This document shows positions 1 through 15,915 of a stretch of 15,915 nt of DNA, one piece after another. The notes beneath the pieces are model-generated. The model searched no databases. It worked only from the letters and a program-made list of their open reading frames with translations, and was not told the origin of the DNA. The position numbers were made by a program, and so were the translations under genes. Each line of letters opens with the position of its first letter. Position 1 is the stretch's first letter. Source of the stretch: a virus. The DNA lies in IMG/VR virus record IMGVR_UViG_3300050495_000032. One strand, given 5' to 3'.

Positions 1-127
1 TAAGGTCAGTGCCCTCAAACATATCCCTTATCGAATCTTCATTAAACTTACCGGCGCCGGCCAAACTATCTGAATAGCCGTACCCACCATGCCGCCAGTA
101 CATCGTAATATTCTCATCGGAGTATTT
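1..127. repeat. Terminal direct repeat, copy 1 (contig-end overlap of a circular molecule)
   Basis: Bases 1-127 are base-for-base identical to 15789-15915. The repeat is bounded by both window ends, and a minus-strand ORF reads in frame across the implied junction. Confidence 0.95.
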
Positions 128-208
128 AAGGGAAATAAGAATGTAAAGGCCTTCACAGCCGGTTATCCAATCCTGACCGAAGGCAGGCAATGTAAATGAA
201 GTAGCCAT
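1..208 (-). CDS. Hypothetical protein, N-terminal part of the junction-spanning ORF (113 aa in total; continues 15915 down to 15655)
   Basis: ATG at 208-206 (plus-strand cat). It translates as MATSFTLPAFGQDWITGCEGLYILISLKYSDENIT and runs in frame into MYWRHGGYGY..., which is track ORF 15655..15891. The track missed the 5' part because it crosses the window edge. Confidence 0.6.
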   Translation of the reverse strand, partial: MATSFTLPAFGQDWITGCEGLYILISLKYSDENITMYWRHGGYGYSDSLAGAGKFNEDSIRDMFEGTDL

Positions 209-221
209 AACGTTAGTTTTT

Positions 222-251
222 AAAAACAGGGGGCGGCTGACCGCTCCCCTG
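222..251 (-). terminator. Intrinsic terminator (10-bp GC stem with one bulged A, TCAG loop, T5 run on the minus strand)
   Basis: Minus strand reads CAGGGGAGCGG-TCAG-CCGCCCCCTG-TTTTT. It lies between the ORF ending at 312 and the ATG at 208. Confidence 0.7.
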
Positions 252-311
252 ATTGTTCTCGTATAGCCGGCCCGTAAAAACCGGCCCGTTAATCAAAACT
301 CACAGTTGCTA

Positions 312-599
312 CTAATTGCCCGCCTTTTCCAGTGTGGCAATCTTTGCCTGTAGTTCCTTTAATCGTTTGGAAAAAAAGGTATGCCACGACATAAACACGC
401 CAATGATGAATTGGCTTTCATCTTCATTAATATCAAGACTAACGACTGTAACTTCCTGAAGTAGTCCGCGAATGGAGAATACAAATTGTTTTGCGGCTGC
501 GGGCGTGCTGTCCGTAACACCTTTGATGATTTCGGTGCACTCACTAATACGTTGTTGATAGTACGCTGTTTTAGCGTATAGCTGATGGATTTGGTTCAT
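312..599 (-). CDS. Hypothetical protein (95 aa, C-terminal coiled-coil-like KRLKELQAKIATLEKAGN)
   Basis: Track ORF 312..644 trimmed to the first ATG (MNQIHQLY, 599-597). It ends TAG-TAG, with a TGA three codons further on. Confidence 0.6.
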   Translation of the reverse strand: MNQIHQLYAKTAYYQQRISECTEIIKGVTDSTPAAAKQFVFSIRGLLQEVTVVSLDINEDESQFIIGVFMSWHTFFSKRLKELQAKIATLEKAGN

Positions 600-698
600 A
601 ACAATAACTTTCGTCAAATATGAGAAATTCCCGGCAATTGGCAAATAAGCGGTAACACTTACACATCAATATAACCGGAATTAGTAAGGAACCCTAAT

Positions 699-728
699 AA
701 AAAAGGGGGCAGACTTGAAAGCCACCCC
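699..728 (-). terminator. Terminator-like hairpin plus T6 run (unit A of a duplicated module)
   Basis: Minus strand reads GGGGTGGC..GCCCCC followed by TTTTTT. The stem is imperfect. The flanks TAATAAAAAAGGGGG and CCCCGTTAA are shared with unit B. Confidence 0.45.
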
Positions 729-796
729 GTTAAACGTTGTCAGCACTTGCACCATACAAGCTGCTAACCATTGAATTTACCTGCCGGCAAGATAAT

Positions 797-824
797 AAAA
801 AAGGGGGTAATAGAAATTACCCCC
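797..824 (-). terminator. Intrinsic terminator (perfect 9-bp stem GGGGGTAAT/ATTACCCCC, 4-nt loop, T6 run)
   Basis: Plus strand reads aaaaaa-gggggtaat-agaa-attaccccc, so on the minus strand the hairpin is followed by TTTTTT. It is the first terminator downstream of the lysozyme gene. Confidence 0.8.
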
Positions 825-883
825 GTTAACCTTATCCTGTAACGATTGCTTGCCCTCACTGGCAGCAACGTACATAACCTTTT

Positions 884-949
884 CTATAAACCTAATCCGG
901 AATCTACCATCTCAACGACGGTAAATACGCAGAGCACAATATAGAGCAT
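884..949 (-). CDS. Possible 21-aa hydrophobic peptide (MLYIVLCVFTVVEMVDSGLGL), TAG-terminated
   Basis: Its ATG at 949 lies 1 nt after the lysozyme TGA (951-953). It is below the track length cutoff and is supported only by position and hydrophobicity. Confidence 0.2.
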   Translation of the reverse strand: MLYIVLCVFTVVEMVDSGLGL

Positions 950-950
950 T

Positions 951-1373
951 TCAGGAAAACCACAAATCAAGTTCCTTATGCCGGCGTGTAACGAGATCCT
1001 GCGATACAACCCCGCCAGCATGTACGTATCTCATCCATTGGGTTTGTAGGGCGTTATCATCGCCGGCATTAATATAGGGCACCATGTCATAAGCATTACC
1101 AATACCCAGATTATAACTGAAATCAAGAAGCGCCACCCACTGCGAAACGGTCAGCGTTCTTTTTACTTTCGGTTTCAACAAATCGTAGTCATGCAGAAAG
1201 TAGGATACCATTTCCGCAAAAGCCTGGGCCCTGGTAATTGTACCGGTGGATCCCGGCGCAGCTGTACCGTACCCCCAGCTGTAACGGGAAACATCCCAGT
1301 AAGGGCGATCCCTGAAACCTTCCACGGTGGGAATGAATGCAGCCAGTTTGTTAATGAGACGAATTTTAAACAT
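951..1373 (-). CDS. Lysozyme, glycoside hydrolase family 24 (T4/P22-lysozyme-like muramidase)
   Basis: N-terminal VEGFRDRPYWDVSRYSWGYGT matches the GH24 catalytic signature E-x8-D...(S/T)-x-G-x-G, with the same E-to-D spacing as T4 lysozyme E11/D20. The track start at 1394 is GTG, so I prefer the ATG at 1373 (MFKIRLINK). Confidence 0.75.
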   Translation of the reverse strand: MFKIRLINKLAAFIPTVEGFRDRPYWDVSRYSWGYGTAAPGSTGTITRAQAFAEMVSYFLHDYDLLKPKVKRTLTVSQWVALLDFSYNLGIGNAYDMVPYINAGDDNALQTQWMRYVHAGGVVSQDLVTRRHKELDLWFS

Positions 1374-1432
1374 CGCCGTCCACGCTATAACCACGGCCAG
1401 CCCCCCAATTACAATATGTTCGGTTTTCAGTT

Positions 1433-1879: not shown

Positions 1880-1898
1880 AATACATAGTTTTAAAAGG

Positions 1899-2828: not shown

Positions 2829-2841
2829 ACTTCACTTCTTT

Positions 2842-3198
2842 TTAAACATAGTACAACTGTACAACTTCCACGGCCGGCGTCGCACCAACGGGCGCACGGA
2901 ACGACAGATCTATTTTACCGGTATATACATCACCCCAATGGCCTGATATTGTCCTGCTATCCCCCAAAGCTGTCAGGGGCGTAGCGGATGGAAATATCAC
3001 CATGCCTTGTATTGTGGCGGTCGTGTCGCCCACATTGGTAAACATGAACGCAAAGCAGTTACGCGCCGGCGGGATGTAGGCGTTCTCTGTGTAGATCTGC
3101 ACGGTCATGTTGTACGGCCGATCCCCCAACTTATTCACCAACTCCCGCAACACATCCGGCGTGATCATGGCCGGCGAATTACGTGCACCTATATCCAT
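2842..3198 (-). CDS. Hypothetical small beta-rich structural protein (118 aa)
   Basis: ATG start and tight packing inside the structural block. The composition is typical of a single beta-sandwich. Confidence 0.55.
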   Translation of the reverse strand: MDIGARNSPAMITPDVLRELVNKLGDRPYNMTVQIYTENAYIPPARNCFAFMFTNVGDTTATIQGMVIFPSATPLTALGDSRTISGHWGDVYTGKIDLSFRAPVGATPAVEVVQLYYV

Positions 3199-3204
3199 AA
3201 AGCG

Positions 3205-3522
3205 TTATTTAAGCAACCGGGAGAGCCCGTAAACGATTGCCGCCCCCAGGCTGCCCAGTAAAAAATATTTTAAAACCGGCGTTTCTTTTACAAGGGTTAC
3301 AATGTTGGAATCGTAGAATGTAGAACTTCCATAGTACCCGTAACCCGGCGAAACGAAACGGTAATGAACGGTTCTGTCCGGAACCTCATCAGGATAAATA
3401 TCTGATCCCCCAATGTGCACCCCGGCAGACCCCAACATGTCGCCGGCATCGTTGTAAAACTGAACTTCGCCGGGAATACTTACACCCTGTTCATCCTGAA
3501 GTAAAACCCTGTAAACCATCAT
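3205..3522 (-). CDS. Membrane-anchored hypothetical protein (105 aa, C-terminal TM YFLLGSLGAAIVYGLSRLL)
   Basis: Its start ATG overlaps the upstream TGA as ATGA (3522-3519). The C-terminus is hydrophobic. Confidence 0.6.
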   Translation of the reverse strand: MMVYRVLLQDEQGVSIPGEVQFYNDAGDMLGSAGVHIGGSDIYPDEVPDRTVHYRFVSPGYGYYGSSTFYDSNIVTLVKETPVLKYFLLGSLGAAIVYGLSRLLK

Positions 3523-4205
3523 AAGGCATCTAATTTTGAGATTACAGCCTTAAATAACAGCGGATCGCTTTCCCCCAGTTGCGCCAGCTTTTCAAGATGG
3601 TCAATGAGTTTAGGATCACATCTTTCAAGCTTATCGAGGGCGCCGGCCAACCTGGTCAATTTCTGCTCAGCACTTTCAACGGCAGCCTCACTATTCCCCA
3701 CGCCGGAAATTGTTTGTAGGGGGGTCGCTGCCATCGCAGCAGGCATAACAGGAGCGGCACCACCGAACATTTGACGAACTAAGCCAATAACAGTTCCCAG
3801 CTTTTCTGGGCTTTCCAAATAACCCATAAGTATTGAGTTTATATCGCCTTCGTCATCGTCATCGTCTTTACCCTTTTCCAACGCCTCAATGCGATCCATT
3901 AACTTTTTGTTGTGTCCGGCAATACCCTGCCCGTCGTAGGTGTCCTTTAACTTGAAATTTAAACAGGCGATGTAACCAGCGTTACCAGTCGCGCAGGTCG
4001 GGGCCTGATCACTATCGTACACGCGCAGCGTATAGGTTGCGGTACTTCCCGAAGTGTCGAAACTGTTCAACCAATCGGATAAGGAATCCGGGCCGACCCC
4101 GGAAACAATAAATTGCTTTCCCTGGTAAAGAGCCCAGGCATCGGTTTCGAAGTATTCAAACCTGGAAAGCACCGCATTGATACCTATAAGTTGCACGCCT
4201 GTCAT
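3519..4205 (-). CDS. Hypothetical protein with a beta N-domain, an acidic linker (KDDDDDEGD) and a helical Ala-rich C-domain (scaffold/assembly candidate)
   Basis: 228 aa. It has an ATGA overlap with the upstream gene at 4205-4202. The function is a guess based on domain composition only. Confidence 0.5.
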   Translation of the reverse strand: MTGVQLIGINAVLSRFEYFETDAWALYQGKQFIVSGVGPDSLSDWLNSFDTSGSTATYTLRVYDSDQAPTCATGNAGYIACLNFKLKDTYDGQGIAGHNKKLMDRIEALEKGKDDDDDEGDINSILMGYLESPEKLGTVIGLVRQMFGGAAPVMPAAMAATPLQTISGVGNSEAAVESAEQKLTRLAGALDKLERCDPKLIDHLEKLAQLGESDPLLFKAVISKLDAL

Positions 4206-4699
4206 CGTGAAGGGCCTTGTATTAATCTGTTCTGCGCATCAAGCCTTATGTACCCGCATTCGATCAACACCACGTAAGGGGTGCCGGCGCTCGTAGTACT
4301 GTTGGCATATTGCAGGTAACTTTTTGGAAAGTCAACGTTAACCCAATTATCGAATGTTGTTGTGTTCCTACGGTACGGGATTGCCCCTGTAGTGAACACC
4401 ATATCATTCAGGGTAAGAATTGGAATTGTTTGCCCTTTCTCCCAACCTTCTGCATATATGGTAACCGACATCTTTGCCAGTTCAGCGGCCGGCGCAGTTG
4501 GGTTGCCGCTTATGATCCCATTGGTAAGAACTTCGGCCGAAATGAGCCGCATCCATTTAATTACGATCTTCTGATCTATCGTTGATCGCAATTGTGAAAT
4601 ATCGGGAAACGGCACACGCTGCACGCCGGCGGTAGGCACGTTTACTTCGATAAGTATCGACGGGCCGCGCGGTTCATCCTGCACTAATACTTGTTGCAT
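4202..4699 (-). CDS. Jelly-roll-like capsid-associated protein candidate (penton or small capsid protein)
   Basis: 165 aa, beta-rich, no TM segment. It lies immediately downstream of the major capsid candidate and is translationally coupled to the next gene. Confidence 0.4.
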   Translation of the reverse strand: MQQVLVQDEPRGPSILIEVNVPTAGVQRVPFPDISQLRSTIDQKIVIKWMRLISAEVLTNGIISGNPTAPAAELAKMSVTIYAEGWEKGQTIPILTLNDMVFTTGAIPYRRNTTTFDNWVNVDFPKSYLQYANSTTSAGTPYVVLIECGYIRLDAQNRLIQGPSR

Positions 4700-4728
4700 G
4701 TGATAGAATTTAAAGAGCGATTAAAGAG

Positions 4729-4753
4729 GGCGTCCGGCACGCAGCCGGACGCC
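4729..4753 (-). terminator. Perfect 10-bp GC hairpin downstream of the capsid candidate (terminator or RNA-stabilising stem-loop)
   Basis: ggcgtccggc-acgca-gccggacgcc. On the minus strand it is followed by CTCTTTAATCGCTCTTT, which is T-rich but interrupted. Confidence 0.55.
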
Positions 4754-4785
4754 GCAACTTATCAGGCTTGCTATGCCAAGCGATT

Positions 4786-5493
4786 TTAGTTTACTACTGT
4801 ACTGTTCTGTGCCAGTACCCCGCGATAGATCAATATGCACCGCATAAATGCGGCAGCACTTGCCAGCGCCCCAGGTAAAACAATTTCGGGAACGTAGTTT
4901 TTACTGCCGATCAACAGCAAGTTTGGTTCCTGTGTGATAAAGCCATCCTCAGCCCCGCGGAACTGATCCTTTGGAGATCCCGCACCCAATGCCGCGGTTT
5001 GCTGCGTCTGTGGTTTGTACCAGTGATTTAGCAGCCCCCTGTACGGTATGATCACATCATTGTTAACTTTCGTTGACAGATAACCGTTTGAGTAAAATGT
5101 AGAATCGAGGGCGGCCGCATCGGCAGCGGCAAATACCTGCGTATTACCGTAGGAGTTAAGCAGGTAAGCGGTATCTGTTCGGCTTGTAGGCTGTGCCACA
5201 AAAATTCCGTATTCGGATACTACCAATGAATCTTGAAGCTGTAAACGATTTTCGGTATTGAAAATTACGTTCGTACTGTTGGCCTGATTGGGTGTTACAC
5301 CGAAAGCAAACCGGTTATTGGCTGTATTTAGCTCAACTTCTAGTCTTATTTCGTGCTGGGAAAGCTTTCTTGCATTCACCCAATCCCAACATTTGCGCGA
5401 ATCCTGCCCGAAGCTTTGGATCCACGAATTAAAAAGAACTTGCTTTGCAATGTCGTAACTCATGCGAGCACTTTGGTTGTTCGTGCTATTCAT
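4786..5493 (-). CDS. Major capsid protein candidate (235 aa)
   Basis: Track ORF 4786..5502 starts at TTG, so I prefer the ATG at 5493 (MNSTNNQ). It is Asn/Gln/Ser/Thr-rich, beta-rich and has no TM segment. It is the only gene in the structural block isolated by hairpins on both sides, each within a roughly 90-115-nt untranslated flank. Confidence 0.4.
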   Translation of the reverse strand: MNSTNNQSARMSYDIAKQVLFNSWIQSFGQDSRKCWDWVNARKLSQHEIRLEVELNTANNRFAFGVTPNQANSTNVIFNTENRLQLQDSLVVSEYGIFVAQPTSRTDTAYLLNSYGNTQVFAAADAAALDSTFYSNGYLSTKVNNDVIIPYRGLLNHWYKPQTQQTAALGAGSPKDQFRGAEDGFITQEPNLLLIGSKNYVPEIVLPGALASAAAFMRCILIYRGVLAQNSTVVN

Positions 5494-5556
5494 ACACCAC
5501 AATTTTCAGGTTAAACAATATTGCTTTGCCTTCAAAGGATCCGGATTTTGTAAATA

Positions 5557-5580: not shown

Positions 5581-5617
5581 TTTGAGCATTACTATTCTAT
5601 GCTTGTAGCCAGTACAA

Positions 5618-6232
5618 TCAATTCATGTAATCAGATCCGGTATTCGTTATCCCGCTGCCACCATCGCAATTTCCAATCGAGCCCATTACGCCACTACCGG
5701 AAGGGATGTAGGCACCCACACCGGAACCGGCGGGCGTATATCCATTGACACGAAACCCTTGCAATTGCGCAGGCGTCCTGCCGGCCAGTTGCGGCGGCGT
5801 TCCACCGATCACCGGTACGTTTTGGTAACCGGCCATCCTATGCCGGCCGATCACCGGTACATTTTGGTAACCGCTGATAACGCCCATTACACGTAACGCG
5901 CGTTTAAGGCCAGCGCCTACCATTATACCCCCGGCAATCTTCTGCACCATCCCGGATGTACCCGAAGATCTGCGCAGCAATAGCAACCCACCGATACCAA
6001 TTTCACCAGCTGTAGCGGCGATCTGTGCGTTTTTAGTCGGCACCGGCACAGGATCCGTGGTTTTTGGTAAGATCTTATCAATTTGTGTGTTAACGACGCC
6101 ACCCAGGAACCAACCCCCGGCAACAGCCGCCAATTTCAAACCGATGTCTTTACTCCCCAGTTTCAACCCACCAATTCCCCCACGACGACGGCGGCGACGG
6201 TGATGCGTTCTGTGTTTTTTTCTGTGTGACAT
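5618..6232 (-). CDS. Basic N-terminus plus Gly-rich multi-hydrophobic-segment membrane protein
   Basis: The N-terminus is MSHRKKHRTHHRRRRRRGG. It is followed by the hydrophobic segments LKLAAVAGGWFLGGVV, IAATAGEIGIGGLLLL and IAGGIMVGAGL, and by an internal GYQNVPVIG x2 repeat. Confidence 0.65.
   Translation of the reverse strand: MSHRKKHRTHHRRRRRRGGIGGLKLGSKDIGLKLAAVAGGWFLGGVVNTQIDKILPKTTDPVPVPTKNAQIAATAGEIGIGGLLLLRRSSGTSGMVQKIAGGIMVGAGLKRALRVMGVISGYQNVPVIGRHRMAGYQNVPVIGGTPPQLAGRTPAQLQGFRVNGYTPAGSGVGAYIPSGSGVMGSIGNCDGGSGITNTGSDYMN
5805..5873 (-). repeat. Intragenic direct repeat (27 nt x2, 26/27 identical, 42-nt period)
   Basis: ccgatcaccggtacGttttggtaaccg at 5805-5831 and ccgatcaccggtacAttttggtaaccg at 5847-5873. 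Each copy encodes GYQNVPVIG. Confidence 0.9.
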
Positions 6233-6260: not shown

Positions 6261-6863
6261 TTAAGCGTAGTACTCGATGTTTCCTGTCGTATTCACGTAA
6301 TCGTATACGTTCTTTACTTCGTCATCGGAACTTGTGTTCAGGCTGTTGATAATTTTTGTGATCGCATCGGCAGCCAGCCCGGCGGCGATCGCATAGTTTA
6401 CTATTTCCTGCGATTGGCTGTTTCTGGTCAAATTGCTGGTTTGCGAAACCTGCGGCAGTTGGTAGTTTGTAGGGTACTGTGTGGCTGTGGTCGTTTGCTT
6501 TTTTGTAAGCAGGTAGAGTGCCAAAGCCCCCAGGCCCAAACCGATCAACATTTTGTTGCTACCACCGCTGCCCCCCACACTTCGCCGGCGCGGCCGGCTG
6601 CCGGCCATTACAACCCGGCGTTTACGAGGCCTTGCATGGGTAGTAGTATGTTTACGGCGTCGTTTGCGTTTCCTGCCGGTCATTACGCGCTCAACGCTGC
6701 GGCGTTCAACCTGTTTAACCACCTTGCGGCCGCTGCGGCGTTTACGCCGTTTAGTTGGTTTCTTTTTAACAGATCCCGTTACTTTTCTTTTACGGGGCCT
6801 GTTCCGTTTTGTGGCAACCCTTTTTTTCCTGGCTTTGGGTTTCGACCGGTGTTTTTTTGCCAT
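6261..6863 (-). CDS. Polybasic (protamine-like) domain fused to a TM anchor; candidate membrane-tethered genome-condensing protein
   Basis: Roughly half of the first ~100 residues are Lys/Arg (MAKKHRSKPKARKKRVATKRNRPRKRK...RPRRRS). This is followed by a GGSGGS linker, the TM segment MLIGLGLGALALYLL, and a ~65-aa C-terminal domain. Confidence 0.6.
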   Translation of the reverse strand: MAKKHRSKPKARKKRVATKRNRPRKRKVTGSVKKKPTKRRKRRSGRKVVKQVERRSVERVMTGRKRKRRRKHTTTHARPRKRRVVMAGSRPRRRSVGGSGGSNKMLIGLGLGALALYLLTKKQTTTATQYPTNYQLPQVSQTSNLTRNSQSQEIVNYAIAAGLAADAITKIINSLNTSSDDEVKNVYDYVNTTGNIEYYA

Positions 6864-8116: not shown

Positions 8117-8117
8117 A

Positions 8118-8632: not shown

Positions 8633-9475
8633 TTAAAAATTTTCTTCGACTTCACTCCAAACAAACCACAAAGCAGCGCCAACAGCGGCCGCCTTTAACG
8701 GATCGGTTTTTACAAAGGATATGAATTTATCTAAAAGTGTTCCGGTACCCGTCGATGTGGTACCGGTTCCCGGATCGGTATCTATATCTGACGTAAGCCC
8801 CGTCGAAGGCCCAGCGGCCAACATTCCATTTACAAATTGCTGTCCGTTGAAACCGGGGCCTGTATAATACTTGTTCCTGTTTTGGTTATCGTCATCGTTG
8901 CGCATTTCAGGAACGGGCGCAACCAAAGGGTATTGGTCAAAAATTGAAAGGTTCCAGCACGTATTGTTGTATGTACTACCGGGAAAAAAGTTCTTTTTTA
9001 AAAACACAGCACGTTCAACCGCTGCCCGGGGTTGATCCATTCTATTTGGATTGTTATTATAATAAGCATCTACTCCTTGCTCAAGCCTCGTAAGGTCAAT
9101 ATCATTATTGATACGAACACCAAAAAGCATTGTAAACACCAAACGGGCCGTTGGAACAATTTCGTCGGGAACGTCATCGGGAACAATATTTCCCTGGCAT
9201 TGGATCTGATCAAGTAAACGCTCCCCCAACACATACTCGCCCGTTGAATACCGTCTACCGTTAATGATGGATCGAAACAACCCGGGCAGATCCCACAGCG
9301 CACCGCTGAAGTTCAACAAAGCGTCTTTAATCGGGCCATCCGGTAATATGCTGTTCCAAATACCGTTTCTAATTTTTACCAGATCCCCAACACTTAAGCC
9401 CGATGCCGTTGTACCGGATAATGGTACTTGACCCTGCGGTACCAGATTGCTATATAACCCGGTTGTAGTTGGCAT
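8633..9475 (-). CDS. Hypothetical virion protein with a C-terminal hydrophobic anchor (280 aa)
   Basis: Its ATG overlaps the upstream TAA as TAATG at 9477-9473. It has a TGTGTTSTGTGT linker followed by LKAAAVGAALWFVW. Confidence 0.6.
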   Translation of the reverse strand: MPTTTGLYSNLVPQGQVPLSGTTASGLSVGDLVKIRNGIWNSILPDGPIKDALLNFSGALWDLPGLFRSIINGRRYSTGEYVLGERLLDQIQCQGNIVPDDVPDEIVPTARLVFTMLFGVRINNDIDLTRLEQGVDAYYNNNPNRMDQPRAAVERAVFLKKNFFPGSTYNNTCWNLSIFDQYPLVAPVPEMRNDDDNQNRNKYYTGPGFNGQQFVNGMLAAGPSTGLTSDIDTDPGTGTTSTGTGTLLDKFISFVKTDPLKAAAVGAALWFVWSEVEENF

Positions 9476-9918
9476 TATACCCCCACGTTATATGTTAAGC
9501 TGAAAGGTTGCTGCATACCGTTTGCATTGACAGCACCGGCAACAACGAGCGCACGTTGACCAACACCACCCGTTAAAATTGCAATGATATCATTAACGAT
9601 TCCCAACGGTTGTAACCGTAGGGTTAACGGTATTTGCCCCTGACTGTTGGCCGGCACGGTTACAGGCACGAAATCGGACACATTTCCGATCAATGTGCCG
9701 TTGCTGGTCACAGATCCCGCCAAACTGTTAATTGTGAAAGTGAGATTGCTAGTGTTCTGAATTACGAGAGTTGCGTAAACTACAGGTGTTAAACCATCGA
9801 GAGAAATCCCGGTAATGTTACCCGGAAAGTAGGTTAAATTATTGGCTGCCCTTGATAAGTTCCATATGTAAATACCAGCAGCCCCCGCCAAAATCAACAG
9901 CACATCAAGCCCGGTCAT
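9475..9918 (-). CDS. N-terminally anchored membrane protein with a LEA_2/WHy-like beta-sandwich pattern
   Basis: The TM segment is LDVLLILAGAAGIYIW. It is followed by ATLVIQNTSNLTFTINSLAGSVTSNGTLIGN...VPANSQGQIPLTLRL, which resembles the LEA14/NDR1-type motif. This is the first gene of the structural block. Confidence 0.4.
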   Translation of the reverse strand: MTGLDVLLILAGAAGIYIWNLSRAANNLTYFPGNITGISLDGLTPVVYATLVIQNTSNLTFTINSLAGSVTSNGTLIGNVSDFVPVTVPANSQGQIPLTLRLQPLGIVNDIIAILTGGVGQRALVVAGAVNANGMQQPFSLTYNVGV

Positions 9919-10076
9919 CTCACAAAGGTTTATACAAGGAAGTTACGAATGGGGAAATATACCAACAATAGTAAGTTTACTAACGTTAAAACGCATCAGT
10001 AAAAAAATCATTACATTGGCCGTCCGCTTATTTTGGGCCAACCGTCGAAGTATTGCAGAAAAAAATATCTGTTATT

Positions 10077-10478
10077 TTACTGAAAATACCCACTCTGTCG
10101 ATGCAAAAGCACCTTTTTTATATCGTTTGGGCAAATTATTCTCCAATGTCCGGGTTCACCATGTACCGGTATTGAGAAACCGACTTGAAACATCTTCAAA
10201 CGCCGTTCCATACAGTCTTTATCTGTCAAATTGCGCCACCGGAGTAATTTCCACTCACTATCCATTACGTACTCACATTCGAGCGTCCACAGTTTACCGG
10301 CCGCGCCCATTTCCATCAACTCCTTTGCCACATCCGAGATATAGGATTTTGGCCCGTCGGGTACATCAAAGACCGGTTTTGGGTTTGTTTGCACCAACGT
10401 GTTTTTTTCCTGGATGTCTTTTTTTAATTGATCCATTCGCGCCTGTACTTCGGGCGTCGGTTTCTGCTCGTTGCTCAT
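10077..10478 (-). CDS. Hypothetical protein (133 aa); its 5' 113 nt overlap the Rep 3' end in another frame
   Basis: ATG at 10478 and TAA at 10077. The composition is well balanced and not shadow-like. No motif recognised. Confidence 0.55.
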   Translation of the reverse strand: MSNEQKPTPEVQARMDQLKKDIQEKNTLVQTNPKPVFDVPDGPKSYISDVAKELMEMGAAGKLWTLECEYVMDSEWKLLRWRNLTDKDCMERRLKMFQVGFSIPVHGEPGHWRIICPNDIKKVLLHRQSGYFQ

Positions 10479-11730
10479 TGTCGAAGGTTGTTTGAATGAA
10501 AGAATTTAGTATGTATAGGTGCTTTTCCAGCAAGGGCGGCGGCCCAAATAACCAGGGTACGAATGTTGCAAAGTTCATTTTGAACACGCGAACCCGATTA
10601 AGGAAAGATCCAAAGCCCAGGTTCTTAAATTCGGTAAGTGTAAATGTGACAGCTGTAAAAAGGCATGAAAAGCCACGGCTATTATGAAACGCCAAATGCG
10701 GGAACTCACTATCGTTTTTGGTAATGTACTTCGTCAGGTAGTTTGCCAATGCAACAGATCCCTTTTTGATTGCGAAATTGATAACGCGTTTTGTTTTGCG
10801 ATGCTTTGAAATGTCGACGCCGTTGTATTTTGAAATAGAAGGTAGGTAGTAGGTTTTGCCGTTATTGCCACATACAGCCCCAGGCATTGAACCCTTTTTG
10901 GCAAGGTTTTTTAAGATCTCCCGCATTCGAAGATTGGCATGGTGCACGTTCATGTAATGGGGAATAGCTATGTGAAAGTGTATTGTGTTTGTGGGATCCT
11001 TATCTTCTTTTAAACGGTCACCGGTTTGACGTTCAGCAATCCATAGGTAGTCCTTTAGCTTATTGGTTTGTCGTAACGTAGTTAACCACGTATTAAAAGC
11101 CTGATAGCAAACGTTATCGGGAGTATGAGCCGGGAACGTCACCGTCCAAAAAAACAGTTCTTTTTTGCCTTTTTGGGTGTTCAGGTAAGCCAAAATCCGA
11201 CCCCTTACCTTCGCCTTGTTAACCCTATACGACTTTTTCCGGTCTTTTTTAGTCAAAAGTTGTTCAGAATCAGGGGAAAAATTTTCTTGTGTGCCAATTT
11301 CTTGCGATATTGCACCCGAACCGCATAAATAGCGATCCGGTTCATCTAATAACAATAACTTTTGAAGGTTGGGGGGCGTCCCGACCTTCTTTTTTTTGCC
11401 CTTGTCTGTATCTGGTTTCTGCGATTCTTTTTTCAACTCTTTACTACTAAGCCATAAACGCCCATTGATGTCAACCGCGCACGCTTCAGATCCTTTGTAA
11501 CGCTCCTTAAACCTGCGTTCATGCAGGAATGTAACGCCCGTTGACGTTAGCTTTAGTTTTAGATCTGGATCCGACCCGCCGGTCATTGATGGTACTTCGC
11601 CTAACTTGATACCTGGAACATTTGGAACGCATGAACTGGGAATTTCGCCGCGAATTTTGCGGATATACGGTGGAGGCGGCTGTAAAGAGAAAGCAGATAG
11701 CGGATTGCTATCACATGCAGGGCGTTGCAT
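10366..11730 (-). CDS. Rolling-circle replication initiator (HUH endonuclease, phiX174 gpA-like two-tyrosine type)
   Basis: Motif I is FFWTVTF (11134-11154). Motif II, the HUH motif, is HFHIAI (10963-10980). Motif III is YLTKYITK (10717-10740), with two Tyr separated by three residues. The motifs occur in the canonical order. The ~190-aa N-terminal extension carries a Lys-rich tract. Confidence 0.85.
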   Translation of the reverse strand: MQRPACDSNPLSAFSLQPPPPYIRKIRGEIPSSCVPNVPGIKLGEVPSMTGGSDPDLKLKLTSTGVTFLHERRFKERYKGSEACAVDINGRLWLSSKELKKESQKPDTDKGKKKKVGTPPNLQKLLLLDEPDRYLCGSGAISQEIGTQENFSPDSEQLLTKKDRKKSYRVNKAKVRGRILAYLNTQKGKKELFFWTVTFPAHTPDNVCYQAFNTWLTTLRQTNKLKDYLWIAERQTGDRLKEDKDPTNTIHFHIAIPHYMNVHHANLRMREILKNLAKKGSMPGAVCGNNGKTYYLPSISKYNGVDISKHRKTKRVINFAIKKGSVALANYLTKYITKNDSEFPHLAFHNSRGFSCLFTAVTFTLTEFKNLGFGSFLNRVRVFKMNFATFVPWLFGPPPLLEKHLYILNSFIQTTFDNEQRAETDARSTGANGSIKKRHPGKKHVGANKPKTGL

Positions 11731-11768
11731 TGATAAACAATTAACTGATTAATAAAACAATAACGCAG

Positions 11769-11799
11769 CAAATATAGGGGAAAGTGGTTATAAAACAAC
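11769..11799 (-). promoter_or_regulatory. Candidate Bacteroidota-type promoter for rep (-7 TATATTTG, -33-like GTTG, 19-nt spacer)
   Basis: The minus strand reads GTTG-N19-TATATTTG, a perfect TAnnTTTG box. The box ends 38 nt upstream of the rep ATG. It is the only perfect TAnnTTTG I found in the intergenic upstream regions I scanned by eye. Confidence 0.35.
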
Positions 11800-12045
11800 A
11801 GCCTGTATAGACGCCCCAGGCGTTTCACCAGACACCATTGAGGTCGGCGCATCTATAAACGCGCAATCATGAGTTGTATCCGGGTTGTAACAAACTGAAA
11901 GGATCGGCAAAGCCGGCTTATAGAATCTGTTGTAACCAACGCTCAACATATCACTCTTAAGAACAGGTGCATCAGTAGGAAATGATTTTAAGTACTCGAT
12001 CAAATTACCAACGGTTACTATTTCTGTTATGTCGTTGTTACCCAT
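11788..12045 (-). CDS. Hypothetical protein (85 aa)
   Basis: ATG start, TAA stop, packed 13 nt after the upstream gene. Confidence 0.55.
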   Translation of the reverse strand: MGNNDITEIVTVGNLIEYLKSFPTDAPVLKSDMLSVGYNRFYKPALPILSVCYNPDTTHDCAFIDAPTSMVSGETPGASIQAVVL

Positions 12046-12058
12046 AGATGTACATGGT

Positions 12059-12373
12059 TTATCTATTAATAAAATGTAACATTGCCAATACCACGTTGAT
12101 AGTAGTCATTACCACAACAAACCAGAAACCAAACCACCAACGGGAATTTGCTGTTAACGGGATCCGTCGTTCGTCTATTTCCACAAAATCAGAATCATAG
12201 TACAGTCTTGTGTCGTTCGCCACATGCCACCCGCAATTCTCCAGGTAGGTGCCCACACGCCAGTAATCGGGGCCGCCCAAACGACCCGACCAAAGCACCC
12301 AGTAGTGGCCGCTCTTACGTCCACCCTTCGCCGAAGGCGAAAAAATTTTTTTATTTTGAGTAGTCAAAAGCAT
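12059..12373 (-). CDS. Hypothetical protein with a C-terminal TM segment (104 aa)
   Basis: ATG start. The Trp-rich soluble part is followed by WWFGFWFVVVMTTINVVLAMLHF. Confidence 0.55.
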   Translation of the reverse strand: MLLTTQNKKIFSPSAKGGRKSGHYWVLWSGRLGGPDYWRVGTYLENCGWHVANDTRLYYDSDFVEIDERRIPLTANSRWWFGFWFVVVMTTINVVLAMLHFINR

Positions 12374-12477
12374 CTAACTGGTTGTTTTAATTGATTGACC
12401 AACAATCGAGGGACGCGTATCGCAAGATTGTTGATTATGGTTTTAAATGCGCCCCCGGTTTCCACCGCGGGGCATTT

Positions 12478-12615
12478 TTATTCCTGGAATGCCACCAACA
12501 GATCTGCGTCTACCACTTGCCACATATCCGGGGTAAATGGAATCAGTTCAAATTGATCAGGATCCGCTACGGTGCCCCACGGCAAAGTTTCGAAAGATAG
12601 AATAGTAAGGATCAT
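12478..12615 (-). CDS. Possible 45-aa ORF (MILTILSFETLPWGTVADPDQFELIPFTPDMWQVVDADLLVAFQE)
   Basis: Hand-translated and below the track cutoff. It fills part of an otherwise empty 285-nt gap. An imperfect hairpin (12445-12478) follows it. Confidence 0.3.
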   Translation of the reverse strand: MILTILSFETLPWGTVADPDQFELIPFTPDMWQVVDADLLVAFQE

Positions 12616-12658
12616 TCCCAAAGTTACGGGGTCACCATGGAAAAAGAATGATCATTCA

Positions 12659-12862
12659 CTAATCGCTATTGCCTAACAGGTAGTAAGGTTCGTCGGCCGT
12701 TTCCGGGCCGTCGTAATCGCCGTCACTCATACAGTCCTGTATAGCCATAATCGTAATTTCCTTAATGCTCAGTTCCGGTTTCTTCTCTTTTTTCCGATTT
12801 TGTTTTTTCCTACGCTCCATTTGCTTCATGGCAGCGTCGTTGAATAGATATAACTGCACCAT
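12659..12862 (-). CDS. Hypothetical small protein (67 aa, basic KKQNRKKEKK tract then an acidic tail)
   Basis: The track ORF start at 12916 lies inside the large palindrome. I trimmed it to the ATG at 12862 (MVQLYLF). It ends TAG-TGA. Confidence 0.5.
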   Translation of the reverse strand: MVQLYLFNDAAMKQMERRKKQNRKKEKKPELSIKEITIMAIQDCMSDGDYDGPETADEPYYLLGNSD

Positions 12863-12876
12863 AGTAGCGTATTTTG

Positions 12877-12993
12877 GCCAACATAGCCTATAAACTTTCC
12901 TTCTGCATTGACGCACCGTTGATTTTGCCGGGCACCCCGGACAAAAATCAACAGTCCGTCAATGCAGAAGGAAAGTTTATAGGCTATGTTGGC
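12877..12993. repeat. 117-nt near-perfect palindrome (long hairpin/cruciform); candidate replication origin element
   Basis: The outer arms 12877-12913 and 12957-12993 are perfect 37-nt reverse complements. The inner arms are 12918-12926 and 12944-12952 (9 bp). The apex is ccggg-cac-cccgg (12928-12940). The element is essentially intergenic. Confidence 0.9.
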
Positions 12994-13247
12994 ATTTCGG
13001 AATTGTCGAAAGGATCTATCTTTCCTAAAACGGCATCGTTATACGCATCCACGCCCCGTTTAACAGCCTTTTCTGTTCGGTCATCCATCTTCATTGCCAA
13101 CCAAACACTAACCGCTAAATCGGCTTTATTACCATCCGTGCGTACAAATACCCTTCGATCACCGTCGGGTTGTTCGTAGAAAACAATCTCAATACGAGAT
13201 CTTCGCACGCTACCGGTCAGCAAACCCCAAAGTTTAGCCCTGATCAT
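12984..13247 (-). CDS. Hypothetical protein (87 aa)
   Basis: ATG start. The TAG stop and the last 10 nt lie inside the right arm of the palindrome. Confidence 0.55.
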   Translation of the reverse strand: MIRAKLWGLLTGSVRRSRIEIVFYEQPDGDRRVFVRTDGNKADLAVSVWLAMKMDDRTEKAVKRGVDAYNDAVLGKIDPFDNSEMPT

Positions 13248-13249
13248 AG

Positions 13250-13489
13250 TTAGAAGTTTTCAGGTTTGATATCAAAAAGGTGAGCAGCGCCCCGTTTCTC
13301 AACTGTATAATAAATACCGTAGAAATTAATAAAAGTCTCAATGTAAGTTACCACATCCCCAGGGTGCAGCGTAAATTCCGGTTCATTTTCCTTTTGATAC
13401 CCTTTACGGGGGTATTTGGTCATTTCGTGGGTGAAACGACTACAGACGCACTCTTTTTTTACGGTCAGTTTATCGCCTGCAATCGGCAT
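13250..13489 (-). CDS. Hypothetical protein (79 aa)
   Basis: The track start at 13495 is TTG, so I prefer the ATG at 13489 (MPIAGDK). The TAA stop lies 2 nt before the next ATG. Confidence 0.55.
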   Translation of the reverse strand: MPIAGDKLTVKKECVCSRFTHEMTKYPRKGYQKENEPEFTLHPGDVVTYIETFINFYGIYYTVEKRGAAHLFDIKPENF

Positions 13490-13592
13490 ACGCAAAAATT
13501 TAATCGTTTAACCATCAAGCCGTTAACTTTCCATTTTTTGAAAAGTTCGGCGCTTTATAAATCCATAGGGCCCGAAATTCAAAAGTTCATCC

Positions 13593-13931
13593 CTAGTAAG
13601 CTAACAGTAATTGATCTTTTAACCTGTTCGCCTCGTTAAGCACAGACTGGGCATCGGGCCAGTTTTCCAATGAATCGTAAGCATGTGCTGTATCAAACCC
13701 GAACACCCACATACCCCGGCACTCATCCGGGCACCAATCCTGCCATGTACCTGAATAAGTCAACCCACCATGAACTTCTATACCCTCGATACTACCGTAA
13801 TCCAACCCAAAATACGGGTGATCGGAAGGAATCGCTACATACCCGTTACCCCAACCGCCTATCAATGGGAATCTTGAAGTAACAGCAAAAGCAACCAATC
13901 TATCAGCCTTTGTTAGTGCCCCCTTTGTCAT
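13593..13931 (-). CDS. Hypothetical protein with a GGWGNGYV...VHGGLTY...GFDTAHAYD motif set (112 aa)
   Basis: The His/Asp-containing motifs look like a small conserved enzyme-like domain, but I cannot name a family from memory. It ends TAG-GGA-TGA. Confidence 0.55.
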   Translation of the reverse strand: MTKGALTKADRLVAFAVTSRFPLIGGWGNGYVAIPSDHPYFGLDYGSIEGIEVHGGLTYSGTWQDWCPDECRGMWVFGFDTAHAYDSLENWPDAQSVLNEANRLKDQLLLAY

Positions 13932-13947
13932 AATACTATAAGTTGAT

Positions 13948-14253
13948 TTATGTTAATTGAGCAGTCAACCGGTCATTTTGCCCCCGGTGCCATATAATGG
14001 AATGGTAGCGCACATTGGTGCCCGAATAAAATTCAACTACGTTTTTTACATCGGTGTACCCAAAACCTGGTTTGTCCTGACAGGGATCACAGATGTACGC
14101 AACCCCCTGATCCTTTGCCCCTGTGATGAAATTACCCTATTTAGGAAACCCCCAGGTTATTGTTACCGGCACTTGTACCATGGTCGGGATACCGGTCAGG
14201 GGACCGCCACAGGCGCAACACCGGCAATACTTTACAATTTCTTCAGCCAACAT
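13948..14253 (-). CDS. Zinc-ribbon-like ORF (101 codons) interrupted by a single in-frame TAG at 14137-14139
   Basis: Hand-translated: MLAEEIVKYCRCCACGGPLTGIPTMVQVPVTITWGFPK-TAG-GNFITGAKDQGVAYICDPCQDKPGFGYTDVKNVVEFYSGTNVRYHSIIWHRGQNDRLTAQLT-TAA. It exactly fills the only large gap (13932-14271) in the gene array. The CxxC pairs lie on either side of the TAG, and the second half has no ATG. Confidence 0.45.
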
Positions 14254-14271
14254 CGGTTCAATTTTTAAAGG

Positions 14272-14481
14272 TTATAAAAGCATTTCAGCGCGTTCAGGGG
14301 GCAGGTTGTTTCTGAATTGCCGCCATTGGCCGGCAAGCGTACCCAACACCCCCCTGGTATCGTTGTAGATCTGTTTTTCGTTAAGATCTGCGGCGTCGCG
14401 TAATGCGCCAACTTTGTCGTATATCTTATCGATATCTTCCGCAATGTCCATAACGTAATCGTAGTAAGACTTTTTTGTCAT
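14272..14481 (-). CDS. Hypothetical helical protein (69 aa)
   Basis: ATG start and TAA stop, 5 nt downstream of the preceding gene. Confidence 0.55.
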   Translation of the reverse strand: MTKKSYYDYVMDIAEDIDKIYDKVGALRDAADLNEKQIYNDTRGVLGTLAGQWRQFRNNLPPERAEMLL

Positions 14482-14486
14482 ATGTT

Positions 14487-14786
14487 TTAATCAAAAGGTT
14501 TCTGTTTACCAAACCCGGAATAATACTCATGGATCAACGGCTTACTGTGAAACGCCCGGATAATTCCAACACCACCCTTAAATATTAACTGCACAATTTT
14601 AGCCGGTTCTTCATTTGCACACCCCTTTAAGCTATCCGCATAGATACATACCGGGTAACCGTTGCGTTGTTCGTTGGTGTCTATAAAGCCGAAAAAGGTA
14701 CGAGCAGAAACACCGTACTTTTTGCATAGCTCATCCAATTCTTTATCAAAACTGTTGATGTGGTCAATTGCCTCTTCACGTGTCAT
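14487..14786 (-). CDS. Hypothetical protein (99 aa), probable paralogue of 14808..15068
   Basis: It shares MT(R/D)(E/R)E...(L/V)C(K/E)K...x29...DSL(K/N)G spacing with its neighbour. Confidence 0.55.
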   Translation of the reverse strand: MTREEAIDHINSFDKELDELCKKYGVSARTFFGFIDTNEQRNGYPVCIYADSLKGCANEEPAKIVQLIFKGGVGIIRAFHSKPLIHEYYSGFGKQKPFD

Positions 14787-14807
14787 GGTAAAATCTTGAT
14801 TTTATGG

Positions 14808-15068
14808 TTAGTTGCCGTCACTGTCCGGATTAGTTAGCCCTTTACTACGTGTCGGGTTCTCCCATCCAGCATCCCGCAGCATAGTGTTTAGCCTGACAAC
14901 AATGTGCTTAAGAAATGTACCGTTTAAACTATCTGTTGGATCAAAGACAGCGAAAGTATTGTCCGTACTATCCGGAGAGATCCAAAGCCCAGCCAAACCG
15001 CGCAGTTTGTGCTTTTCACACACTGCACCGAGATCTTTGTAAACTTCCTGCATTTCCCGATCTGTCAT
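14808..15068 (-). CDS. Hypothetical protein (86 aa)
   Basis: The track start at 15104 lies inside a terminator hairpin. I trimmed it to the ATG at 15068 (MTDREMQEV). Confidence 0.55.
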   Translation of the reverse strand: MTDREMQEVYKDLGAVCEKHKLRGLAGLWISPDSTDNTFAVFDPTDSLNGTFLKHIVVRLNTMLRDAGWENPTRSKGLTNPDSDGN

Positions 15069-15093
15069 ATAGATAAAATTTGTTTGTAGTAAT

Positions 15094-15122
15094 AAAAAGC
15101 GCAAGGTGGAAACCCCGCGCTT
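15094..15122 (-). terminator. Intrinsic terminator (8-bp stem with two G-U pairs on the minus-strand RNA, T5 run)
   Basis: Minus strand reads GCGCGGGG-TTTCCA-CCTTGCGC-TTTTTATT. The two mismatches on the plus strand are G-U wobbles on the minus strand. Confidence 0.65.
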
Positions 15123-15183
15123 ATGTGATAAAATCCATTCTAAAGATAGGGGCAGATGCAGAAGTACCCACCCGTAGCTGTTA

Positions 15184-15205
15184 GACCAAAACAGGGCCGA
15201 AGCCC
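15184..15205 (-). terminator. Small UUCG-tetraloop hairpin plus T-run directly after the stop codon
   Basis: Minus strand reads GGGC-TTCG-GCCC-TGTTTTGG, starting 1 nt after the TAA at 15207-15209. Confidence 0.5.
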
Positions 15206-15206
15206 A

Positions 15207-15431
15207 TTAAACCAATAATAAAAGAACGTGACGGTAATTAGTTCCCGGCATTACCGTTATTTCGTTTTGAACATCTTCACACAACAGGACAGGGCAGGCA
15301 TTTTCTGAATGCCTGACAAACCGGAATATACGGTTTGGGTGGTAAGAATCTCCCGTAACCGCAGATATCAAATAAGTGCTCTTATCAACGAACTCAAACC
15401 GCTGTCCTTCTTTCAATTCCTTCAAAAGCAT
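15207..15431 (-). CDS. Hypothetical protein (74 aa)
   Basis: ATG start and TAA stop, followed by two terminator-like hairpins. Confidence 0.55.
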   Translation of the reverse strand: MLLKELKEGQRFEFVDKSTYLISAVTGDSYHPNRIFRFVRHSENACPVLLCEDVQNEITVMPGTNYRHVLLLLV

Positions 15432-15463
15432 ACCAATCTATTATAAAGTTGTTTGTTAAAGGT

Positions 15464-15488
15464 AACGACCGGGAATTAACCGGTCGTT
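15464..15488. other. Perfect 9-bp hairpin (aacgaccgg-gaattaa-ccggtcgtt) in the 223-nt intergenic region
   Basis: Seen directly. There is no T-run on the minus strand and only a weak one (tgttt) on the plus strand. Function unknown. Confidence 0.5.
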
Positions 15489-15654
15489 TGTTTCCATGTG
15501 TACTACCCAAAAAATGGAATCTCGTTTGGTTGATACGGGCAACGGATTAATGATTGCAATGACTGTAGCGAAAAGAAACTAACTGCCGGGGCTACAGTGT
15601 CGGATCTAACTTAACAGGCCCCCACGGCCCAAATTTTTCAGTCTGAAACCCCCC

Positions 15655-15915
15655 TTATTCCTGATGAGGATGATGCGCAATTTCTTTCGGCACGAACTGG
15701 GGCAGGTACTGGTAGTTCGCTATAACAGGATACAATCCCAGTAAAGCAAACGCGTCGCGTGTGCATGGTACAGGCAGCGCAATTTCTATAAGGTCAGTGC
15801 CCTCAAACATATCCCTTATCGAATCTTCATTAAACTTACCGGCGCCGGCCAAACTATCTGAATAGCCGTACCCACCATGCCGCCAGTACATCGTAATATT
15901 CTCATCGGAGTATTT
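15655..15915 (-). CDS. Hypothetical protein, C-terminal part of the junction-spanning ORF (same gene as 1..208)
   Basis: Track ORF 15655..15891 stays open to the window end. Through the circular junction it continues to the ATG at 208, giving 113 aa in total. Confidence 0.6.
   Translation of the reverse strand, partial: KYSDENITMYWRHGGYGYSDSLAGAGKFNEDSIRDMFEGTDLIEIALPVPCTRDAFALLGLYPVIANYQYLPQFVPKEIAHHPHQE
15789..15915. repeat. Terminal direct repeat, copy 2
   Basis: Identical to 1-127. The unique genome length is therefore 15,788 bp. Confidence 0.95.

Follow-up and report, generated by a model that had tools for sequence, protein, structure and literature searches.

Tailless membrane-containing phages are badly under-sampled, and two of them that have no packaging ATPase, FLiP (Finnlakeviridae, from Flavobacterium, 9.2 kb) and phiCjT23 (7.6 kb), are central to ideas that link single-stranded DNA (ssDNA) and double-stranded DNA (dsDNA) jelly-roll viruses. 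Microviruses, with genomes of 4–7 kb and a major capsid protein (MCP) of roughly 430–550 amino acids, are not known to have membrane proteins or a GH24 endolysin. SPV1 (Portogloboviridae), a virus of an archaeal host with a 20 kb dsDNA genome and no known rolling-circle replication initiator (Rep), has single-jelly-roll capsid proteins, an internal membrane, a genome that is condensed by a basic protein and no known packaging ATPase. Here we describe IMG/VR record IMGVR_UViG_3300050495_000032, a stretch of 15,915 nucleotides that we call the window. It is probably a complete circular genome, that of a tailless, uncultivated Bacteroidota phage, and belongs to a large, undescribed lineage in which genomes measure 9–17 kb. 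The core gene set of this lineage encodes a LEA_2-like protein, a Cys-His-Asp protein, basic membrane proteins, two beta-sandwich proteins of 235 and 165 amino acids and a 228-amino-acid protein. The general concept is not new, because Yutin et al. 2018 reported a FLiP group, defined by homology to the FLiP MCP, in which contigs that reach 17 kb encode an M13-like Rep but no ATPase (PMC5894146). A description of the present lineage, which has no FLiP-MCP homology, was not found in full-text searches of the literature; the supplements of Yutin 2018 omit the FLiP-group contigs.

Bases 1–127 of the window are exactly identical to bases 15789–15915. The record is therefore a circular unit of 15,788 bp followed by a 127-nt assembly overlap, and an open reading frame (ORF) of 113 amino acids (15655–15996) spans the junction of the circle and reaches position 208. 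ORFs of at least 60 amino acids add up to 15.9 kb on the minus strand versus 6.5 kb on the plus strand, conservation in the relatives tracks the minus-strand ORFs and about 28 minus-strand genes together occupy 85% of the unit. Read as transcribed, that is, with descending coordinates, an accessory block is followed by the rep gene (10366–11730), a structural block that extends from 9918 to 1433 and a lysozyme gene. The window has no tRNA gene, no match in Rfam and no notable tandem repeat. A public gene caller (L012) places a 159-amino-acid gene on the plus strand at 10016–10495. It is overlapped by a minus-strand ORF (10077–10478) that is kept in L014–L016 and that itself extends for about 110 nt into the 3' end of rep, in a different frame. 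The plus-strand call is probably spurious, since the minus-strand ORF is the conserved one.

Among the candidates that were scored, Rep has 692 homologues and the 235-amino-acid protein has 632, all of them unnamed. Many of the homologue contigs measure 14.5–17.3 kb and none is longer than 17.3 kb. An exhaustive profile search with the 235-amino-acid protein returned 314 clusters at 50% identity, 177 of which have E < 1e-10. The gene order is kept in L014–L023, and in IMG/VR five relatives are entered as viral contigs. Relatives of 14.1 kb (L017), 11.6 kb (L031) and 9.3 kb (L029) carry terminal repeats and are thus circular as well. The distant relatives of 9–12 kb share the LEA_2-like, Cys-His-Asp, Arg/Gly-rich membrane and 228-amino-acid proteins (hhalign probabilities of 83–99.9%), with a weaker correspondence for the 165-amino-acid protein (66–68%); their MCP homologues were found by profile search. 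These genes form a coherent morphogenetic module. A length of 15.8 kb is typical of the clade of the window, in which 15–17 kb is the norm, and is among the largest in the wider 9–17 kb group.

No trace of a packaging motor was found. The pattern [AG]xxxxGK[ST] occurs in none of the six frames of the window, and a relaxed P-loop pattern occurs in none of its open frames of at least 80 codons. Scans of essentially all ORFs against Pfam, PHROGs and NCBIfam gave confident matches only for the lysozyme and for one ORF of the accessory block; no match was obtained to terminase, portal, tail, integrase, relaxase, partition, ATPase, toxin–antitoxin or resistance families. Scattered chance matches to Walker A are seen in the relatives. 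Those in L021 and L023 were rejected, given a transmembrane tail and a non-P-loop context; similar strings occur in L030–L032, one of them inside a homologue of the peptidase-like core protein. Profile searches of PDB sequences with seven family alignments returned nothing significant, the best match being PDB entry 4H40 for a 309-amino-acid protein of the structural block (E = 0.0025). A megablast search of the whole unit against 50,697 GenBank phages (INPHARED, August 2025) gave no match, nor did tblastn searches of Rep and of the 235- and 309-amino-acid proteins against the same set or of Rep and the 235-amino-acid protein against 72,556 plasmids. When the core profiles were compared with all proteins of FLiP, phiCjT23, PM2 and P23-77 by hhalign, every probability stayed below 15%.

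An earlier note on this DNA, written from the letters alone, had proposed an apparently undescribed circular replicon of 15,788 bp with all of its credible genes on one strand and with no packaging ATPase, terminase, portal, tail module or integrase. The exact terminal identity, the ORF totals and their conservation in relatives, the empty six-frame Walker A and family scans, the lack of a match in GenBank phages and the unnamed relatives bear this out. The note had also called the genome unusually large, which is true next to FLiP but not within its own clade, and FLiP-group contigs of up to 17 kb are known. The accessory block that it described is real, but its size of 4.6 kb is better given as about 4.2–5 kb.

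The 235-amino-acid protein (4786–5493, minus strand) is the candidate MCP. No protein of the lineage is more conserved: it keeps 57–85% identity in relatives in which Rep has 26–58%. The adjoining gene (4202–4699, minus strand) encodes the 165-amino-acid protein, which is second in conservation (42–80%) and is a candidate second capsid or penton protein. The AlphaFold2 model of the 235-amino-acid protein (pLDDT 75) is a beta-sandwich of about eight strands, preceded by two helices at the N-terminus and with one inserted helix, and that of the 165-amino-acid protein (pLDDT 82) also has eight strands. Both are thus modelled as single and not as double beta-sandwiches. For these models Foldseek lists mostly single-jelly-roll capsid proteins, from circovirus, tymovirus, picornavirus and SPV1, together with a half-domain of the MCP of nucleocytoplasmic large DNA viruses. 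By TM-score, the best match of the 235-amino-acid model is chain 6oj0_A, a capsid protein of SPV1 (TMt 0.47, probability 0.51); SPV1 VP4 is listed as well, and an SPV1 chain is also listed for the 165-amino-acid model. For the two models a jelly-roll reading is plausible on weak evidence. The 235-amino-acid protein gives no support to a double jelly-roll, for which some room is left because the MCP of phiCjT23 has just 239 residues. No match to the protein family libraries was obtained for 68 diverse members of the capsid-candidate superfamily, and pairwise profile comparison of the beta-rich proteins of the window revealed no paralogy among them. Between the two genes lies a GC-rich hairpin (4729–4753, minus strand; ten pairs, nine of them G–C), a possible attenuating terminator that may raise the ratio of the MCP transcript.

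Rep (10366–11730, minus strand; 454 amino acids) carries motif I as FWTVTFP (193–200), motif II as HFH (251–253) and motif III as YLTKYITKN (Tyr331 and Tyr335), preceded by an N-terminal region of about 190 residues that is rich in lysine. FWTVxFP, HFH and YLTKYxTKN are invariant or nearly so across 28 homologues. As motifs I–III are kept and the tyrosines are spaced Y-x3-Y, the motifs show Rep to be an HUH initiator of the two-tyrosine class. Its Pfam match is weak (PF23343, REP_ORF2-G2P, E = 0.0025, below the cut-off); PF23343 is on record for the family members P0096 and P0120, and the P12 protein of PM2 has this domain too. In hhalign YLTKYITKN is placed on YVAKYVNKK of phiX174 gpA without significance; the probabilities are 1.0% for gpA and 0.4% for P12, and it is the active-site motif alone that aligns. 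The same structural core is accompanied by other initiators in relatives: a Rep_1 protein in L017:1941–3041 (PF01446, E = 1e-14), a Rep_trans protein in L029:5416–6522 and a clear PF23343-type HUH Rep in L033:3842–5122. The replication module is swapped within the lineage by non-orthologous replacement, and the initiators are always of the rolling-circle type. A gene for a single-stranded-DNA-binding protein (SSB) is present in the distant relative L031 (5708–6046) and one for a DNA methylase in L032 (633–1547), which points to a broader range of hosts and of accessory genes; both contigs are of low GC content (29–32%).

A near-perfect hairpin of 117 nt (12877–12993) is found upstream of rep. 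Its arms of 50 nt are 96% complementary, with an inner stem of CCGGG/CCCGG, and folded as single-stranded DNA it reaches −63.8 kcal/mol (z = −16.6 versus shuffled sequences). Equivalent hairpins with arms of 62–63 nt occur upstream of rep in L015 (3130–3297) and L016 (2355–2487). The hairpins of all three have CCTAAAAAC/GTTTTTAGG in common, and the other stem sequence differs yet still pairs. The hairpin is a candidate replication origin, which could act as a single-strand origin or as a binding site for Rep. It is uninformative on whether the virion holds ssDNA or dsDNA, because rolling-circle plasmids have such origins too.

The host is likely to belong to the Bacteroidota. All 11 relatives of Rep in cellular genomes (L001–L011) come from this phylum, namely from Bacteroidales, Flavobacteriaceae, Sphingobacterium, Salinimicrobium and Pedobacter. 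A Shine–Dalgarno-like tetramer precedes none of the 28 genes, versus 5% expected by chance. The Bacteroidota-type −7 promoter motif TAnnTTTG is found three times on the coding strand, twice between genes, and one of these two copies (11769–11776, minus strand) lies 46 nt upstream of the start codon of rep. Matches to sigma-70 promoters in the window are not above chance, as is expected for a Bacteroidota host. The cellular loci were considered as proviruses of the lineage and rejected, as they have Rep alone in common with it and represent other mobile elements. In Bacteroidales metagenome-assembled genomes (L002:6240–10655 and L003:7662–12124) a 294-amino-acid relative of Rep (36–37% identity) sits in a small island, between a 409-amino-acid ORF that looks like a tyrosine integrase by eye and a 433-amino-acid ORF with a P-loop-like motif; this appears to be a different integrative element with the same initiator family. 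A Rep-related domain is also found inside a 661-amino-acid protein that is present in two copies in one Bacteroidales genome (L005:9224–11209 and L006:9128–11113), in a setting that resembles a larger prophage or mobile element.

The remaining genes of the structural block, all on the minus strand, are rich in membrane-associated features. The first (9475–9918) encodes the LEA_2-like core protein of 147 amino acids, in which an N-terminal hydrophobic segment anchors a weak LEA_2-like beta domain. It is followed by a 280-amino-acid protein (8633–9475) that contains a Thr/Gly-rich linker and has a hydrophobic tail at its C-terminus; in some relatives it is replaced by a longer protein that includes the domain of the next gene. 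This next gene (8118–8627) encodes the peptidase-like core protein of 169 amino acids, which has a weak match to PF01841 and in which Cys98, His137 and Asp152 are invariant, as in the triad of transglutaminases and papain-like enzymes. The domain stands alone in the window and is N-terminal in proteins of 365–580 amino acids in distant relatives (L017:4712–6454, L029:7620–9305 and L033:7826–9049). This Cys-His-Asp domain is universal in the core of the lineage, putatively with a peptidase-like role. A small protein with hydrophobic segments (7694–8203, with a 140-amino-acid version in the gene caller) is conserved solely in near-identical contigs, and a 264-amino-acid protein (6869–7663) has a Thr-rich linker and one or more C-terminal hydrophobic anchors.

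Two strongly basic proteins precede the candidate MCP. The first (6261–6863; 200 amino acids, pI 11.8, net charge +45) is conserved in eight loci and has a hydrophobic segment after a K/R tract of about 100 residues; it is a candidate genome-condensing, membrane-anchored protein. The second (5618–6232; 204 amino acids, pI 11.4) is a core gene product; its N-terminus is rich in Arg, a hydrophobic region rich in Gly comes next, and the motif GYQNVPVIG is duplicated. The duplication is encoded by a 27-nt direct repeat within 5805–5873, the copies of which are 96% identical and 42 nt apart. These features of the two proteins, basic tract and hydrophobic region, persist in 8–9 relatives despite identities of 28–65%, and we propose that they neutralise the genome and tether it to the membrane.

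Beyond the two capsid candidates, the acidic 228-amino-acid protein (3519–4205), part of the core that is common to the distant relatives, has a helical C-terminal half and is possibly an assembly or scaffold protein. It is followed by a 105-amino-acid protein (3205–3522) with a C-terminal hydrophobic anchor and by a conserved beta-rich protein of 118 amino acids (2842–3198), a candidate minor capsid or vertex protein. The 309-amino-acid protein (1899–2828) is a candidate receptor-binding spike; its conserved N-terminus and variable remainder would fit this role. It has weak matches to phrog_613, a 'head protein' (E = 1e-4 over 90 residues), and to 4H40, a putative cell-adhesion protein of Bacteroides. 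The idea that it is a FLiP-like MCP, on account of its size and phrog_613, was rejected: hhalign gives 0.1% and it is among the less conserved core genes. phrog_613 provides no link to the FLiP MCP either, because the latter matches no PHROG family. An Ala/Gly-rich protein of 148 amino acids (1433–1879) is conserved in part of the family, and the block ends with the GH24 phage lysozyme (951–1394; PF00959, E = 4.8e-16; phrog_7, E = 3.5e-20), an endolysin. Downstream of it are an intrinsic terminator (803–824, minus strand; the stem GGGGGTAAT followed by a T-run, 3' of the lysozyme gene), a 110-amino-acid ORF and a second terminator-like hairpin. The variable accessory or early block (11788–15915 and on to 208 across the junction, minus strand) holds about 12 small ORFs that are poorly conserved among the relatives. 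Its sole family match is that of ORF 13593–13931 to phrog_2164 (unknown function, E = 9e-17), a family that other phages share.

In total at least six proteins of the structural block contain hydrophobic segments of transmembrane length. They recall the internal-membrane phages of the PM2 and PRD1 type, and by this analogy an internal membrane would be consistent with the gene content. The many membrane-anchored structural proteins and the lysozyme of the earlier note are thus present; its spike-like proteins are putative. Its phiX174-gpA-type Rep stands at the level of the HUH and two-tyrosine motifs but not as significant similarity to gpA (probability 1%), and its jelly-roll-like capsid candidates are predicted beta-sandwiches for which a firmer jelly-roll identity did not emerge. 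On the points that the note had named as able to overturn its view, we find no ATPase or terminase, beta-sandwich capsid candidates, no match to a classified family, and a structural block with an endolysin.

These features can be combined into a model of the infection cycle. Rolling-circle replication would be driven by Rep after it nicks a double-stranded replicative form at the long hairpin region or close to it. The genome would not be pumped into a preformed shell. Its charge would be neutralised by the two polybasic proteins, which would be held by their hydrophobic segments in a virus-derived lipid vesicle. Around this core the 235-amino-acid protein, probably together with the 165-amino-acid protein, would build an icosahedral jelly-roll shell with the 309-amino-acid protein as vertex spike, and the GH24 lysozyme would free the progeny. 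For the DNA in the virion, we consider ssDNA, as in Microviridae and FLiP, to have somewhat less than an even chance and dsDNA, as in SPV1, to be a serious contender, the small remainder being left to a non-viral or other nature. The lack of an ATPase together with polybasic proteins fits an SPV1-like dsDNA core as well as it fits an ssDNA virus.

A dsDNA virion would combine rolling-circle replication, as in PM2 and P2, with a nucleoprotein core that is condensed by the polybasic proteins inside a membrane and a capsid, for which no ATPase is needed. We regard this as a real if tentative possibility. It is in agreement with the SPV1 chains that Foldseek lists for both capsid candidates, the best TM-score of the 235-amino-acid model among them, although these matches are not significant. 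The two strongly basic proteins, the PF23343 domain that the Rep of PM2 shares and the composition of the coding strand (A 27.1, T 26.5, G 25.0, C 21.5%), which has no strong T-bias, point in the same direction. The family was found in several hundred assemblies, and dsDNA is recovered more readily than ssDNA in ordinary shotgun libraries; bulk metagenomes, however, also capture the replicative form of ssDNA phages. One distant relative, L031, encodes an SSB, which speaks for ssDNA, and the characterised membrane-containing dsDNA phages of bacteria all encode an ATPase of the FtsK/HerA type, whereas the ssDNA phage FLiP is without one (PMC5894146).

A more specific version of the ssDNA case would make the lineage a new group of Bacteroidota phages, at the level of a family to a class, with icosahedral, membrane-containing virions built from two different single-jelly-roll proteins (235 and 165 amino acids) around motor-less circular ssDNA genomes of 9–17 kb. 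In this full form we hold it to be unlikely. If true, it would join a two-protein capsid like that of Helvetiavirae to microvirus-like replication and packaging; these would be the largest known genomes of icosahedral ssDNA phages, and the group would be a candidate for an intermediate stage by which double-jelly-roll viruses arose.

It is less probable still that the window is an extremely diverged member of the FLiP/phiCjT23 group (Finnlakeviridae-like, Bamfordvirae), in which case the 235-amino-acid protein would be a minimal double jelly-roll that AlphaFold has mis-modelled. The MCP of phiCjT23, of nearly the same length, is indeed a double beta-sandwich, a stretch of 40 residues in the 235-amino-acid model is unresolved, and FLiP and PM2 likewise have MCPs without mutual sequence similarity (PMC5894146). 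The host phylum, circularity, coding on one strand, a rolling-circle Rep, a lytic enzyme and the lack of an ATPase are shared, and distant relatives use Rep_trans, as phiCjT23 does. Nevertheless, the 235-amino-acid model has about eight strands and N-terminal helices, not sixteen strands, and no FLiP or phiCjT23 chain is found among the 50 Foldseek matches listed for it; chains of PM2 and P23-77 are likewise absent among the matches listed. Profiles of the 235-amino-acid family, one of them from an alignment of 68 members (mean column identity 34%), reach hhalign probabilities of less than 1% with the MCPs of FLiP, phiCjT23, PM2 and P23-77; for diverse family profiles the values for FLiP, phiCjT23 and PM2 are 0.1–0.7%. 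No family member matches phrog_20547, the PHROG family of the phiCjT23 MCP, and the other structural proteins have no match either. The comparison by Foldseek and profiles with the FLiP MCP, PM2 P2 and P23-77 VP16 and VP17, which had been suggested as a check of the FLiP-like design, thus gave no match among those listed. Read as kinship, this design finds no support in the MCP comparison, the single sandwich, the structural matches listed or the different Rep family.

That the window is not a virus but a rolling-circle plasmid or vesicle-borne element, with envelope or surface proteins as its conserved block, is very improbable: the undetected capsid homology, the many membrane-anchored proteins and the relatives of Rep in non-viral integrative islands of Bacteroidales (L002/L003) would fit, but an endolysin closes the structural block, viral capsid proteins are the nearest neighbours in structure of the two best-conserved proteins, both soluble beta-sandwiches, the family scans found no relaxase, partition, toxin–antitoxin or resistance genes, MCP and Rep have no match in the plasmids, five relatives are listed as viral in IMG/VR, and the narrow size range of 9–17 kb with a conserved gene order is typical of genomes that are constrained by a capsid.

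Several observations weigh against the reading of the window as the genome of a tailless Bacteroidota phage. No virion has been seen. No capsid protein was identified by homology in Pfam, PHROGs, NCBIfam, PDB sequences or GenBank phages; Foldseek against PDB and BFVD gave no match at E ≤ 0.001, with TM-scores of 0.15–0.47, and residues 149–190 of the 235-amino-acid model are of low confidence or disordered. It is composition alone that suggests the roles in membrane, spike, scaffold and DNA condensation. The hairpin is no more than a candidate origin. The chromosomal loci of Bacteroidota share Rep and no structural genes, and the assignment of the host is indirect.

With the phage genome proposed here, a clean and complete reference becomes available for a lineage that is frequent in public metagenomes (hundreds of contigs, 314 capsid-protein clusters at 50% identity) and is missing from Pfam, PHROGs, NCBIfam and the GenBank phages searched. 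Its core gene set can serve for detection, and a capsid made of two beta-sandwich proteins is a hypothesis open to test. The lineage is also a natural experiment in the replacement of replication modules, in which one structural core goes with three unrelated rolling-circle initiators. Should the virion DNA be single-stranded, the upper size limit of icosahedral ssDNA phages roughly doubles. Should it be double-stranded, this would be a bacterial case of motor-less packaging of a nucleoprotein core, to our knowledge so far known in one archaeal virus only.

Among the described groups, the hallmarks of Caudoviricetes (terminase, portal, HK97-fold MCP and tail) have no family match in the window save for the weak hint of phrog_613. 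The Zot/pI-like ATPase and small helical coat protein of Inoviridae and Plectroviridae were not found; there is no P-loop, and a lysozyme is present. With Microviridae (phiX174) the window shares a Y-x3-Y HUH initiator, the lack of a packaging ATPase and, as predicted for the window, a small basic DNA-binding protein and a single-jelly-roll capsid; no homology was found with PHROG and Pfam capsid families or by tblastn in GenBank phages, and the length is 15.8 kb versus 4–7 kb.

PM2 (Corticoviridae, Vinavirales; 10 kb circular dsDNA) is alike in its PF23343 HUH Rep, circularity, a block rich in membrane proteins and a spike gene, putative in the window, near the end of it, and differs in its packaging ATPase P9 and double-jelly-roll MCP P2, neither of which is found in the window. 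P23-77 of Thermus (Helvetiavirae, with the SH1-like archaeal viruses; 17 kb circular dsDNA) resembles the window in size, lysozyme, membrane proteins and adjacent genes for small beta-sandwich capsid proteins (VP16 of 173 and VP17 of 291 amino acids; candidates of 235 and 165 in the window). The two MCPs by which Helvetiavirae (Matshushitaviridae and relatives) are recognised are vertical single jelly-rolls, which the adjacent, well-conserved beta-sandwich proteins of the window recall. P23-77 differs in its packaging ATPase ORF13, no profile similarity is seen, and VP16 and VP17 are not among the Foldseek matches listed. The ATPase by which Vinavirales and Helvetiavirae are recognised is absent from the window. 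SPV1 is alike in that its capsid protein gives the top TM-score, not significant, for the 235-amino-acid model.

In design the window is a loose parallel to FLiP and phiCjT23. All three have circular genomes with genes on one strand, a rolling-circle initiator, a Bacteroidota host (inferred for the window), no packaging ATPase, a lytic enzyme that ends the structural block and several small hydrophobic proteins that are consistent with an internal membrane. The genome of the window is 1.7–2 times larger and, unlike theirs, encodes two polybasic proteins and a Cys-His-Asp core protein. No homology is detectable in any structural protein, all core-gene profiles reaching at most 0.7% with the FLiP and phiCjT23 MCPs in hhalign, by which membership of Finnlakeviridae is judged, and the capsid candidate is a single beta-sandwich. 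The Rep families are also different: Phage_CRI in FLiP, Rep_trans in phiCjT23 and a PF23343-type two-tyrosine HUH protein in the window. The FLiP group of Yutin et al. 2018 is defined by an MCP homology that the lineage lacks, and 'FLiP-like' describes an analogy of design, not membership.

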